64,000 nucleotides of DNA, taken from Escherichia coli. GTDB taxonomy: Bacteria > Pseudomonadota > Gammaproteobacteria > Enterobacterales > Enterobacteriaceae. This document shows, piece after piece, positions 56,187 to 61,234 of this stretch (position 1 is its first letter; each line of letters begins with the position of its first letter). The translations under genes were made by a program, and so were the position numbers. The notes under the pieces are model-generated. The model was not told the DNA's origin. It was given only the letters and a program-made list of their open reading frames with translations, and did no database searches. The DNA is taken from NCBI RefSeq assembly GCF_003019035.1, contig NZ_CP027447.1; one strand, given 5' to 3'.

Positions 56187-58721
56187 ATGGCCGGGAATGA
56201 CCGCGAGCCAATTGGACGCAAAGGGAAACCGACGCGTCCGGTCAAACAAAAGGTAAGCCGTCGTCGTTACGAAGATGACGATGATTACGACGATTATGAT
56301 GACTATGAGGATGAAGAACCGATGCCGCGCAAAGGTAAGGGCAAAGGCAAAGGGCGTAAGCCTCGTGGCAAACGCGGCTGGCTATGGCTGCTGCTAAAAC
56401 TGGCTATCGTTTTTGCCGTGCTGATCGCCATTTACGGCGTTTATCTCGATCAAAAAATTCGCAGCCGTATTGATGGCAAGGTCTGGCAATTGCCCGCGGC
56501 AGTTTATGGTCGAATGGTCAACCTTGAGCCAGACATGACCATCAGCAAGAACGAGATGGTGAAGCTGCTGGAGGCGACCCAGTATCGCCAGGTGTCGAAA
56601 ATGACCCGTCCTGGTGAGTTTACCGTACAGGCCAACAGCATTGAGATGATCCGCCGTCCGTTTGATTTCCCGGACAGCAAAGAAGGGCAGGTGCGCGCGC
56701 GTCTGACCTTTGATGGCGATCATCTGGCGACGATCGTCAATATGGAGAACAACCGTCAGTTCGGTTTCTTCCGTCTTGATCCGCGCCTGATCACTATGAT
56801 CTCTTCACCAAACGGTGAGCAGCGTCTGTTTGTGCCGCGCAGTGGTTTCCCGGATTTGCTGGTGGATACTTTGCTGGCGACAGAAGACCGTCATTTCTAC
56901 GAGCATGATGGGATCAGTCTCTACTCAATCGGACGTGCGGTGCTGGCAAACCTGACTGCCGGACGCACGGTGCAGGGGGCGAGTACGCTGACGCAACAGT
57001 TGGTTAAAAACCTGTTCCTCTCCAGCGAGCGTTCTTACTGGCGTAAAGCGAACGAAGCCTACATGGCGCTGATCATGGACGCGCGTTACAGCAAAGACCG
57101 TATTCTTGAGCTGTATATGAACGAGGTGTATCTCGGTCAGAGCGGCGACAACGAAATCCGCGGCTTCCCGCTGGCGAGCTTGTATTACTTTGGTCGCCCG
57201 GTAGAAGAATTGAGCCTCGATCAGCAGGCGCTGTTGGTGGGTATGGTGAAAGGGGCGTCCATCTACAACCCGTGGCGTAACCCGAAACTGGCGCTGGAGC
57301 GACGTAACCTGGTACTGCGTCTGCTGCAACAGCAACAGATTATTGATCAAGAACTCTATGACATGTTGAGTGCACGTCCGCTGGGTGTTCAGCCGCGCGG
57401 TGGGGTGATCTCTCCTCAGCCAGCCTTTATGCAACTGGTGCGTCAGGAGCTGCAGGCGAAATTAGGCGATAAGGTAAAAGATCTCTCCGGCGTGAAGATC
57501 TTCACTACCTTTGACTCGGTGGCCCAGGACGCGGCAGAAAAAGCCGCCGTGGAAGGCATTCCGGCACTGAAAAAACAGCGTAAGTTGAGCGATCTTGAAA
57601 CCGCGATTGTGGTTGTTGACCGCTTTAGCGGTGAAGTTCGTGCGATGGTCGGTGGTTCTGAGCCGCAGTTTGCGGGCTACAACCGTGCGATGCAGGCGCG
57701 TCGTTCGATTGGTTCCCTTGCAAAACCAGCGACTTATCTGACTGCCTTAAGCCAGCCGAAAATCTATCGTTTGAATACGTGGATTGCCGATGCGCCAATC
57801 GCGCTGCGTCAGCCGAATGGCCAGGTCTGGTCACCGCAGAACGATGACCGTCGTTATAGCGAAAGTGGCAGAGTGATGCTGGTGGATGCGTTGACCCGTT
57901 CGATGAACGTGCCGACGGTGAATCTGGGGATGGCGCTGGGGCTGCCTGCGGTTACGGAGACCTGGATTAAACTGGGCGTACCGAAAGATCAGCTGCATCC
58001 GGTTCCGGCGATGCTGCTGGGGGCGTTGAACTTAACGCCAATCGAAGTGGCGCAGGCATTCCAGACTATCGCCAGCGGCGGTAACCGTGCACCGCTTTCT
58101 GCGCTGCGTTCGGTAATTGCGGAAGATGGCAAAGTGCTGTATCAGAGCTTCCCGCAGGCGGAACGCGCGGTTCCGGCGCAGGCGGCGTATCTGACACTAT
58201 GGACCATGCAGCAGGTGGTACAACGTGGTACGGGGCGTCAGCTTGGGGCGAAATACCCGAACCTGCATCTGGCAGGGAAAACAGGAACTACCAACAATAA
58301 CGTAGATACCTGGTTTGCGGGCATTGACGGCAGCACGGTGACCATCACCTGGGTAGGCCGTGATAACAACCAACCGACCAAACTGTATGGAGCCAGCGGG
58401 GCAATGTCGATTTATCAGCGTTATCTGGCTAACCAGACGCCAACACCGCTGAATCTTGTTCCGCCGGAAGATATTGCAGATATGGGCGTGGACTACGACG
58501 GCAACTTTGTTTGCAGCGGTGGTATGCGTGTCTTGCCGGTCTGGACCAGCGATCCGCAATCGCTGTGCCAGCAGAGTGAGATGCAGCAGCAGCCGTCAGG
58601 CAATCCGTTTGATCAGTCTTCTCAGCCGCAGCAACAGCCGCAACAGCAACCTGCTCAGCAAGAGCAGAAAGACAGCGACGGTGTAGCCGGTTGGATCAAG
58701 GATATGTTTGGTAGTAATTAA
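56187..58721 (+). CDS. mrcB: Penicillin-binding protein 1B (bifunctional glycosyltransferase/transpeptidase)
   Basis: Start at [18 protein letters not shown]; 844 aa; acidic [15 protein letters not shown] tract, TM segment, Gln/Pro-rich C-terminus. Confidence 0.96.
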
Positions 58722-58879
58722 CGTCTAAGCGTGACATACCGGATGGCGAGTAGCCATCCGGTAAAATAACATCCCACCTAAAGTATTAACCCTTTCTTTT
58801 CATCTGGTTGTTTATTAACCCTTCAGGAACGCTCAGATTGCGTACCGCTTGCGAACCCGCCAGCGTTTCGAATATTATC

Positions 58880-58905
58880 TTATCTTTATAATAATCATTC
58901 TCGTT
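58880..58905 (+). promoter_or_regulatory. Fur-box-like element in fhuA promoter
   Basis: cttatctttATAATAATCATTCTCgtt resembles GATAATGATAATCATTATC; about 40 bp upstream of fhuA start. Confidence 0.6.
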
Positions 58906-58940
58906 TACGTTATCATTCACTTTACATCAGAGATATACCA

Positions 58941-61184
58941 ATGGCGCGTTCCAAAACTGCTCAGCCAAAACACTCACTGCGTAAAATCGCAGTTGTAGTA
59001 GCCACAGCGGTTAGCGGCATGTCTGTTTATGCACAGGCAGCGGTTGAACCGAAAGAAGACACTATCACCGTTACCGCTGCACCTGCGCCGCAAGAAAGCG
59101 CATGGGGGCCAGCTGCAACTATTGCGGCGCGACAGTCCGCTACCGGCACCAAAACAGATACACCGATTCAAAAAGTGCCACAGTCTATTTCTGTTGTGAC
59201 CGCCGAAGAGATGGCGCTGCATCAGCCGAAGTCAGTAAAAGAGGCGCTTAGCTACACGCCGGGTGTCTCTGTTGGTACGCGTGGCGCATCCAACACCTAT
59301 GACCACCTGATCATTCGCGGCTTTGCAGCAGAAGGCCAAAGTCAGAATAACTATCTGAATGGCCTAAAGTTGCAGGGCAACTTCTATAACGATGCGGTCA
59401 TCGACCCGTATATGCTGGAACGTGCTGAAATCATGCGTGGTCCGGTATCCGTGCTGTACGGGAAAAGCAGCCCTGGCGGCCTGTTGAACATGGTCAGCAA
59501 GCGCCCGACTACAGAACCGCTGAAAGAAATTCAGTTTAAAGCCGGTACTGACAGCCTGTTCCAGACTGGTTTTGACTTTAGCGATGCGCTGGATGATGAC
59601 GGCGTTTATTCTTATCGCCTGACCGGTCTTGCGCGTTCTGCCAATGCCCAGCAGAAAGGGTCAGAAGAGCAGCGTTATGCTATTGCACCGGCGTTCACCT
59701 GGCGTCCGGATGATAAAACCAATTTCACCTTCCTTTCTTACTTCCAGAACGAGCCGGAAACTGGTTATTACGGCTGGTTGCCGAAAGAGGGAACCGTTGA
59801 GCCGCTGCCGAACGGTAAGCGTCTGCCGACAGACTTTAACGAAGGGGCGAAGAACAACACCTATTCTCGTAACGAGAAGATGGTCGGCTACAGCTTCGAT
59901 CACGAATTTAACGATACCTTTACTGTGCGTCAGAACCTGCGCTTTGCTGAAAACAAAACCTCGCAAAACAGCGTTTATGGTTACGGCGTCTGCTCCGATC
60001 CGGCGAATGCTTACAGCAAACAGTGTGCGGCATTAGCGCCAGCGGATAAAGGCCATTATCTGGCACGTAAATACGTCGTTGATGATGAGAAGCTGCAAAA
60101 CTTCTCCGTTGATACCCAGTTGCAGAGCAAGTTTGCCACTGGCGATATCGACCACACTCTGCTGACCGGTGTCGACTTTATGCGTATGCGTAATGACATC
60201 AACGCCTGGTTTGGTTACGACGACTCTGTGCCACTGCTCGATCTGTACAATCCGGTGAATACCGATTTCGACTTCAATGCGAAAGACCCGGATAACTCCG
60301 GTCCGTACCGCATTCTGAATAAGCAGAAGCAAACGGGCGTTTATGTTCAGGATCAGGCGCAGTGGGATAAAGTGCTGGTCACCCTGGGCGGTCGTTACGA
60401 CTGGGCAGATCAAGAATCTCTTAACCGCGTAGCGGGAACGACCGATAAACGTGATGACAAACAGTTTACCTGGCGTGGTGGTGTTAACTACCTGTTTGAT
60501 AATGGTGTAACACCATACTTCAGCTATAGCGAATCGTTTGAACCTTCTTCGCAAGTTGGGAAGGATGGTAATATTTTCGCACCGTCTAAAGGTAAGCAGT
60601 ATGAAGTCGGCGTGAAATATGTACCGGAAGATCGTCCAATTGTAGTTACTGGTGCCGTGTATAATCTCACTAAAACCAACAACCTGATGGCGGACCCTGA
60701 GGGTTCCTTCTTCTCGGTTGAAGGTGGCGAGATCCGCGCTCGTGGCGTAGAAATTGAAGCGAAAGCGGCGCTGTCGGCGAGTGTTAACGTAGTCGGTTCT
60801 TATACTTACACCGATGCGGAATACACTACCGATACTACCTACAAAGGAAATACGCCTGCACAGGTGCCAAAACACATGGCTTCGCTGTGGGCTGACTATA
60901 CCTTCTTTGACGGTCCGCTTTCAGGTCTGACGCTGGGCACCGGTGGTCGTTATACTGGCTCCAGCTATGGTGATCCGGCTAACTCCTTTAAAGTGGGAAG
61001 TTATACGGTCGTGGATGCGTTAGTGCGTTATGATCTGGCGCGAGTCGGCATGGCGGGCTCCAACGTGGCGCTGCATGTTAACAACCTGTTCGATCGTGAA
61101 TACGTCGCCAGCTGCTTTAACACTTATGGCTGTTTCTGGGGCGCAGAACGTCAGGTCGTTGCAACCGCAACCTTCCGTTTCTAA
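58941..61184 (+). CDS. fhuA: Ferrichrome outer membrane transporter FhuA (TonB-dependent)
   Basis: 747-aa ORF; signal peptide, TonB box EDTITVTA, C-terminal ...ATFRF. Confidence 0.97.
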   Translation: MARSKTAQPKHSLRKIAVVVATAVSGMSVYAQAAVEPKEDTITVTAAPAPQESAWGPAATIAARQSATGTKTDTPIQKVPQSISVVTAEEMALHQPKSVKEALSYTPGVSVGTRGASNTYDHLIIRGFAAEGQSQNNYLNGLKLQGNFYNDAVIDPYMLERAEIMRGPVSVLYGKSSPGGLLNMVSKRPTTEPLKEIQFKAGTDSLFQTGFDFSDALDDDGVYSYRLTGLARSANAQQKGSEEQRYAIAPAFTWRPDDKTNFTFLSYFQNEPETGYYGWLPKEGTVEPLPNGKRLPTDFNEGAKNNTYSRNEKMVGYSFDHEFNDTFTVRQNLRFAENKTSQNSVYGYGVCSDPANAYSKQCAALAPADKGHYLARKYVVDDEKLQNFSVDTQLQSKFATGDIDHTLLTGVDFMRMRNDINAWFGYDDSVPLLDLYNPVNTDFDFNAKDPDNSGPYRILNKQKQTGVYVQDQAQWDKVLVTLGGRYDWADQESLNRVAGTTDKRDDKQFTWRGGVNYLFDNGVTPYFSYSESFEPSSQVGKDGNIFAPSKGKQYEVGVKYVPEDRPIVVTGAVYNLTKTNNLMADPEGSFFSVEGGEIRARGVEIEAKAALSASVNVVGSYTYTDAEYTTDTTYKGNTPAQVPKHMASLWADYTFFDGPLSGLTLGTGGRYTGSSYGDPANSFKVGSYTVVDALVRYDLARVGMAGSNVALHVNNLFDREYVASCFNTYGCFWGAERQVVATATFRF

Positions 61185-61234
61185 TTTCTCTTTTGGGGCA
61201 CGGATTTCCGTGCCCGTTTCACAAGTTGGCTGTT

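Follow-up and report, generated by a model that had tools for sequence, protein, structure and literature searches.

Repression of the fhuACDB promoter, which serves ferrichrome and ferric-hydroxamate uptake, by Fur is documented in Escherichia coli K-12. Chen et al. (2007, NAR 35:6762, Table 4, PMC2189734) place the fhuA Fur site at a centre of K-12 position 167439 (−45), with a score of 19.5 bits and three sites covering 31 bp, and report that an oligonucleotide of this site is gel-shifted by 150 nM Fur. Baichoo & Helmann (2002) and Chen et al. (2007) have reread the classical Fur box, GATAATGATAATCATTATC, as a pair of overlapping sites of the 7-1-7 or 9-1-9 type, and the ryhB operator of K-12, AATAATAATCATTCTCATT, is a 9-1-9 site. 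Occupancy of the fhuA promoter in vivo was recorded by ChIP-exo, with Fur peaks at 167456–167466 in MG1655 and 167456–167468 in W3110 under iron-replete conditions only; the same fhuA peak is marked there as present in Seo et al. too (Gao et al. 2023, PMC10164565). In that study, deletion of fur raised fhuA expression by a log2 fold change of 1.09 in MG1655, 5.0 in W3110 and 1.07–3.93 in six further strains, and fhuC, fhuD and fhuB rose much like fhuA. A fhuA promoter-lacZ fusion is likewise Fur-repressed (Beauchene et al. 2015, PMC4676285). No Fur footprint on the fhuA promoter was found in the published literature examined. A second regulator, the HOCl-sensing LysR-type repressor HypT (YjiE), leaves a DNase I footprint on TTACGTTATCATTCA in the fhu promoter of Salmonella Typhimurium (Jo et al. 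2019, PNAS 116:3740, PMC6397515), and it is from this organism that both the footprint and the expression data of that paper come.

The window, by which we mean the whole 64-kb stretch of DNA analysed here, comes from an E. coli that is not K-12 and carries the site in the mrcB–fhuA intergenic region; according to the annotation of the identical E. coli sequence, fhuA is followed by fhuC, fhuD and fhuB, and the K-12 MG1655 record gives the gene order mrcB-fhuA-fhuC-fhuD-fhuB. Between approximately 58786 and 58960, the window and K-12 MG1655 agree at every base without indels, and they diverge only upstream of approximately 58786; K-12 coordinates are obtained by adding 108543 to window coordinates. 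The sequence around the site reads ...CGAATATTATCTTATCTTTATAATAATCATTCTCGTTTACGTTATCATTCACTTTACATCAGAGATATACCAATG..., and 301 bp around it were found by megablast in 5421 of 5426 complete E. coli genomes, always between mrcB and fhuA. Of the 5426, 5421 also carry the 81-bp promoter (at least 99% identity in 3821, at least 95% in 5359). The features of the region are listed below in window coordinates, together with the mean majority fraction of each segment in an alignment of 73 upstream regions; a strand is given where one was assigned.

58788–58802: equivalent of the distal HypT site, AACCCTTTCTTTTCA, with one mismatch to the footprint in Salmonella, AACCCTTCCTTTTCA
58847–58854: block containing the −35 hexamer, mean majority fraction 0.93
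58849–58854, plus strand: −35 hexamer TTGCGA of the fhuA promoter (consensus scan and alignment; fits the mapped start)
58865–58878: block containing the −10 hexamer, mean majority fraction 0.90
58873–58878, plus strand: −10 hexamer TATTAT, −12 to −7 of the mapped start (consensus scan and alignment; start 6–7 nt downstream)
58881–58899: weaker Fur site overlapping the main one from 6 bp upstream, centre 58890, matrix score 7.0 bits
58884–58885, plus strand: fhuACDB transcription start, leader of 56–57 nt (two Cappable-seq datasets)
58884–58902: classical 19-bp Fur-box alignment in the register of the earlier note, CTTTATAATAATCATTCTC against GATAATGATAATCATTATC, 14/19
58887–58905: main Fur site, 9-1-9 inverted repeat TATAATAAT-C-ATTCTCGTT, centre 58896, matrix score 20.4 bits, mean majority fraction 0.96
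58893–58911: marginal Fur site overlapping the main one from 6 bp downstream, centre 58902, matrix score 1.7 bits
58905–58919: invariant block TTACGTTATCATTCA, equal to the proximal HypT footprint of Salmonella and containing a Fur right half-site
58906–58920: the 15 bp next to the Fur 19-mer, mean majority fraction 0.95
58928–58933, plus strand: TCAGAG, conserved and Shine-Dalgarno-like, 8–13 nt before the ATG, mean majority fraction 0.96 across the 73 aligned species; a putative ribosome-binding element
58941–61184, plus strand: fhuA coding sequence, 747 aa, first gene of fhuACDB (ORF list; RefSeq annotation of the identical E. coli sequence)
various positions: intervening and flanking spacers, mean majority fraction 0.60–0.77

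The earlier note on this DNA, made from the letters alone, had read a Fur-box-like operator into the fhuA promoter at 58887–58903. The 15-mer that it singled out, ATAATAATCATTCTC, is indeed present, 39–53 nt 5' of the fhuA start codon (58941), but it occupies 58888–58902, so that the interval given was too wide by one base at each end. The description of the promoter as AT-rich was accurate, the 81 bp from 58860 to 58940 being 70% A+T. The proposed likeness to the 19-bp Fur consensus holds as a count, with 14 of 19 positions matched at 58884–58902, but it does not discriminate the site from the background of the window: matches of at least 14/19 occur at nine places in the 64 kb, mostly in GAT-rich stretches, and GATAATGATAATCATTATC with at most three mismatches has no match anywhere in it. 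Because mismatch counting was non-discriminating, a position weight matrix was used instead, as the note itself had suggested. This 19-bp matrix, symmetrised and phased 9-1-9, was built from 24 independent K-12 Fur sites with fhuA excluded; site centres were taken from Chen et al. 2007 and sequences from NC_000913.3, each coordinate conversion was checked against the published distance to the start codon, and all 24 of the extracted 19-mers carry the AATGATAATnATTATCATT pattern.

Scored in this way, 58887–58905 (TATAATAATCATTCTCGTT) reaches 20.4 bits, the highest value in the 64-kb window, with the runner-up at 14.0 bits, and it falls within the range of 15.6–28.1 bits obtained for the 24 training sites in leave-one-out scoring. 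A score of at least 20.4 bits was met in 0 of 300 dinucleotide shuffles of the window, in 3 of 20000 of the intergenic region and in 5 of 20000 of the 81 bp at 58860–58940, and its per-position P is 7e-8 under genomic and 6e-7 under intergenic composition. Within 58870–58930 the only positive scores besides the main site are those of its two neighbours offset by 6 bp, and within 58500–59300 there is no other match above 5 bits. The three overlapping sites form a 31-bp cluster (58881–58911), the same as the "3 walkers, 31 bp" of Chen et al. 2007, whose centre at K-12 167439 converts to window position 58896, the centre of the top-scoring 19-mer. Sequence and position are thus those of the K-12 fhuA site, in a promoter identical base for base, and the two scores, 19.5 bits there and 20.4 bits with an independent matrix here, accompany the same three-site, 31-bp arrangement.

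The best register is therefore the 9-1-9 site at 58887–58905, with the classical alignment 3 bp to its left. The centre of the latter, 58893, falls between the 9-1-9 centres at 58890 and 58896, and the 14/19 box at 58884–58902 splits into these two sites shifted by 6 bp. In contrast to the classical box, only the right-hand 9-1-9 site is strong in fhuA, the left-most hexamer being degenerate (CTTTAT), and the ATTCTC arm is closer to the ChIP-exo-derived motif TGAnAATnATTcTCA than to the classical ATTATC. The ryhB operator shares the 9-1-9 form and an unusual ATAATAAT-C-ATTCTC core and is identical at 17 of 19 positions; it differs at position 1 (A, against T in fhuA) and position 17 (A, against G in fhuA), and scores higher (25.8 against 20.4 bits). 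Elsewhere in the window, the next-best matrix match (17360–17378, 14.0 bits) lies inside a 630-aa ORF at 17154–19046, at the K-12 position of aceF, and a match of 13.1 bits at 19141–19159 is intergenic, before an ORF at 19191–20678, at the K-12 position of lpd; both scores are under the validated-site range.

Conservation was assessed by a scan with the FhuA protein, one genome per species, which returned 78 loci, mostly from Enterobacteriaceae and including Hafnia and Ewingella, of which 77 were usable. The top matrix match in the 300 nt upstream of fhuA scores at least 15 bits and lies at −43 to −49 from the ATG in 76 of the 77, where the conserved site reads [C/T]ATAATAAT[A/C]ATT[C/A]TCGTT. 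In the alignment, the Fur 19-mer and the 15 bp next to it stand out, as do the two promoter blocks, from spacers of much lower majority fraction, and the conserved block runs 15 bp past the Fur 19-mer, as TACGTTATCATTCAC.

Two independent cap-based datasets locate the transcription start. Cappable-seq in M9 glucose gives a plus-strand start at U00096.2 167428 with a relative read score of 31.4 (PMC4782308 supplement), window position 58885, and SMRT-Cappable-seq gives a forward start at NC_000913.3 167427 with 506 reads and transcripts covering b0150-b0153 (PMC6131387 supplement), window position 58884. The promoter elements that fit this start are themselves conserved: the −35 hexamer reads TTGC(T/C/G)A in 67 of 73 aligned upstream regions, the 18-bp spacer is present in all 73, and 62 species have TATTAT as the −10 hexamer, with TAATAT in another 7. 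With the start at 58884/58885, the Fur 19-mer spans +3 to +21 and thus does not lie on the −10 hexamer; the 31-bp cluster spans −4 to +27. A different start is in use in the literature. The HypT footprint numbering of Jo et al. 2019 fixes it at window position 58899, with a perfect TATAAT as the −10 element, and it came from a computational study (Huerta & Collado-Vides 2003). That predicted start, with TATAAT at 58887–58892, would put the Fur site at −12 to +7. TATAAT was rejected as the main −10 element: it has no usable −35 hexamer at 16–18 bp, and under the conditions sampled no start at K-12 16743x–16744x appears in either Cappable-seq dataset, including the vicinity of K-12 167442, where one would be expected from this hexamer. 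It possibly acts as a minor or condition-specific promoter. TATAAT is perfect in Escherichia, Salmonella and several Citrobacter, and reads CATAAT in most other genera.

Several further observations concern the promoter and its transcripts. An inverted repeat, GAATATTAT / ATAATAATC, joins 58870–58878 and 58888–58896, so that the mapped −10 region nearly complements the left arm of the Fur box and a Fur-like ATTATC hexamer thus falls on the −10 element as well. The 8 bp from the −10 hexamer to the Fur box (58879–58886) are the least conserved part of the core promoter in the 73-sequence alignment; they read CTTATCTT in 3 of 73 sequences, the window included, and the commonest variants elsewhere, GCTGCCGT and GCTGCGGT, are GC-rich and resemble a GC-rich discriminator. 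A minor Cappable-seq start with a relative read score of 1.96 lies at window position 58934 (K-12 167477), 7 nt before the fhuA ATG (PMC4782308 supplement). Transcripts from the fhuA promoter have a "novel" 3' end at approximately 61220 (K-12 169763), between fhuA and fhuC (SMRT-Cappable-seq, PMC6131387), which suggests partial termination after fhuA; a terminator scan near 61220 yielded only a weak hairpin at 61158–61171, within the end of fhuA. Upstream, a perfect inverted repeat with arms of 11 bp, TACCGGATGGC / GCCATCCGGTA, and a loop of 5 nt lies at 58737–58763, 16 nt past the mrcB stop codon, and was not called by the terminator scan because its tail is A-rich rather than T-rich.

These data identify 58887–58905 almost certainly as the Fur operator of the fhuACDB promoter. 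It has the score of a Fur operator, a 9-1-9 / 7-1-7 repeat with neighbours offset by 6 bp, overlap with the initiation region and conservation among orthologs. The present analysis shows that the sequence matches, that the match has statistical weight and is conserved, and where it lies with respect to the published transcription start; that Fur binds the site in vitro, occupies the promoter in vivo and controls expression is taken from the papers cited. The published site position, the validated-like score, the 76/77 conservation, ChIP-exo, fur deletion and the lacZ fusion all agree with the operator that the earlier note had proposed, and its accompanying statement that fhuACDB is iron-repressed by Fur is borne out by the published rise of fhuA, fhuC, fhuD and fhuB in fur deletion strains and by the Fur-repressed promoter-lacZ fusion. 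A counterpoint is the modest repression in MG1655 in one dataset (log2 fold change 1.09). The MG1655 ChIP-exo peak converts to window 58913–58923, its midpoint 22 bp downstream of the site centre. Because ChIP-exo peaks deviate from Chen centres by −14 to +28 bp at 15 other classical Fur sites, this offset lies within the scatter of the dataset, and the peak does not show which part of the operator, a downstream half-site included, Fur occupies. Further ChIP-exo Fur peaks occur approximately 200 bp to either side, at K-12 167218–167254 (mrcB) and 167641–167672 (fhuA), that is, window 58675–58711 and 59098–59129; neither interval contains a matrix match above 5 bits.

The position of the operator suggests how it would work. 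When iron is sufficient, Fe2+-loaded Fur dimers bind TATAATAAT-C-ATTCTCGTT (58887–58905), and further dimers, whose number is inferred, would probably spread to the two weaker sites that overlap the main one at a 6-bp offset and possibly extend to a downstream half-site, GTTATCATT. Bound at +3 to +21, Fur would fill DNA that the polymerase needs for the open complex, and initiation would be blocked; when iron is scarce, Fur loses its metal and leaves the DNA, and fhuACDB is transcribed. Since the operator lies within polymerase-covered DNA with either start, steric exclusion of RNA polymerase is the likely mode of repression, as general knowledge of Fur-repressed promoters would lead one to expect.

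The conserved block is some 15 bp longer than one Fur site accounts for, and the additional segment coincides with the sequence bound by HypT in Salmonella. The proximal Salmonella footprint, TTACGTTATCATTCA, is found unchanged at 58905–58919, and the distal one, with its single mismatch, at 58788–58802; the latter lies 111 nt upstream of the start assumed by Jo et al., which places that start at window position 58899, and the HypT numbering accordingly uses the predicted start rather than the Cappable-seq start at 58884/58885. Identity to the footprinted sequence at 58905–58919 concerns a block beside the Fur box: the HypT operator belongs to another regulator and another signal (HOCl), and it adjoins the Fur 19-mer without coinciding with it. 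That the invariant block is mainly an operator of HypT, with Fur secondary, would accord with the mapping of both footprints, with the 15-bp block being as conserved as the Fur 19-mer (0.95 against 0.96) and with the block's poor score as a full Fur site, the 19-mer centred at 58908 reaching only −3.8 bits. We consider this quite improbable. The footprint meets the Fur 19-mer at its last base only, and HypT therefore cannot explain the conservation and score of 58887–58904; the Fur and HypT readings are compatible, not exclusive; and the block also holds GTTATCATT (58909–58917), a Fur half-site that no other in the region outscores (12.9 bits, the maximum being 15.3) and that keeps the 6-bp register of the main site at a distance of 12 bp from its centre, though it has no left partner. 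The segment at 58905–58919 may thus be used by HypT, by an additional Fur dimer, or by both. As a speculative extension that we think somewhat improbable, the 34 bp at 58887–58920, near-invariant in 73 regions mostly from Enterobacteriaceae, could be a composite operator, a Fur site joined to a 15-bp half-site/HypT segment, in which iron and hypochlorite signals would be integrated by cooperation or competition, all within the transcribed leader. This stretch corresponds to +3 to +36 of the mapped start, whereas databases and the HypT paper assume that it lies over the −10 box.

With the Fur operator as the preferred reading, the same position in the transcript raises the question of function as RNA. 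By the mapped starts 58887–58920 is transcribed, and the leader is highly conserved, as it would be if the sequence acted in the 56-nt leader as an sRNA or protein site or as a structure affecting translation or stability. The leader is, however, predicted to be less structured than shuffled controls (MFE −2.8 kcal/mol, z = +1.72) and has no Rfam match at an E-value of 1 or below, so that it lacks the marks of a structured cis-regulatory RNA; the invariant sequence allows no covariation to be read, and the evidence for Fur acting at the DNA level, by gel shift and ChIP-exo, is direct. An RNA-level role in place of the operator is accordingly very improbable. Least credible of all is that the Fur likeness is a by-product of an AT-rich promoter, TATAAT being its −10 element and the remainder AT-rich spacer, with Fur acting elsewhere or indirectly: the A+T content of 58860–58940, the unremarkable 14/19 match and the use of a perfect TATAAT in the predicted promoter of Jo et al. 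2019 would allow it, but composition-matched shuffles of these 81 bp seldom reach the score, both arms are conserved far past a −10 hexamer, the oligonucleotide carrying the site is shifted by Fur, no Cappable-seq start falls where that hexamer would direct it, and 58500–59300 holds no other matrix match above 5 bits.

As the fhuA Fur operator is already documented and not novel, little is at stake in its identification, and what is confirmed is a textbook regulatory element. Its significance rests on the phased 9-1-9 matrix and the phylogenetic footprint, not on the classical 14/19 match. The cap-based starts put the fhuA start 14–15 nt upstream of the predicted start still in use in the literature, so that neither the Fur box nor the proximal HypT site falls in the −10/+1 region any longer, both now belonging to the DNA that is transcribed early.
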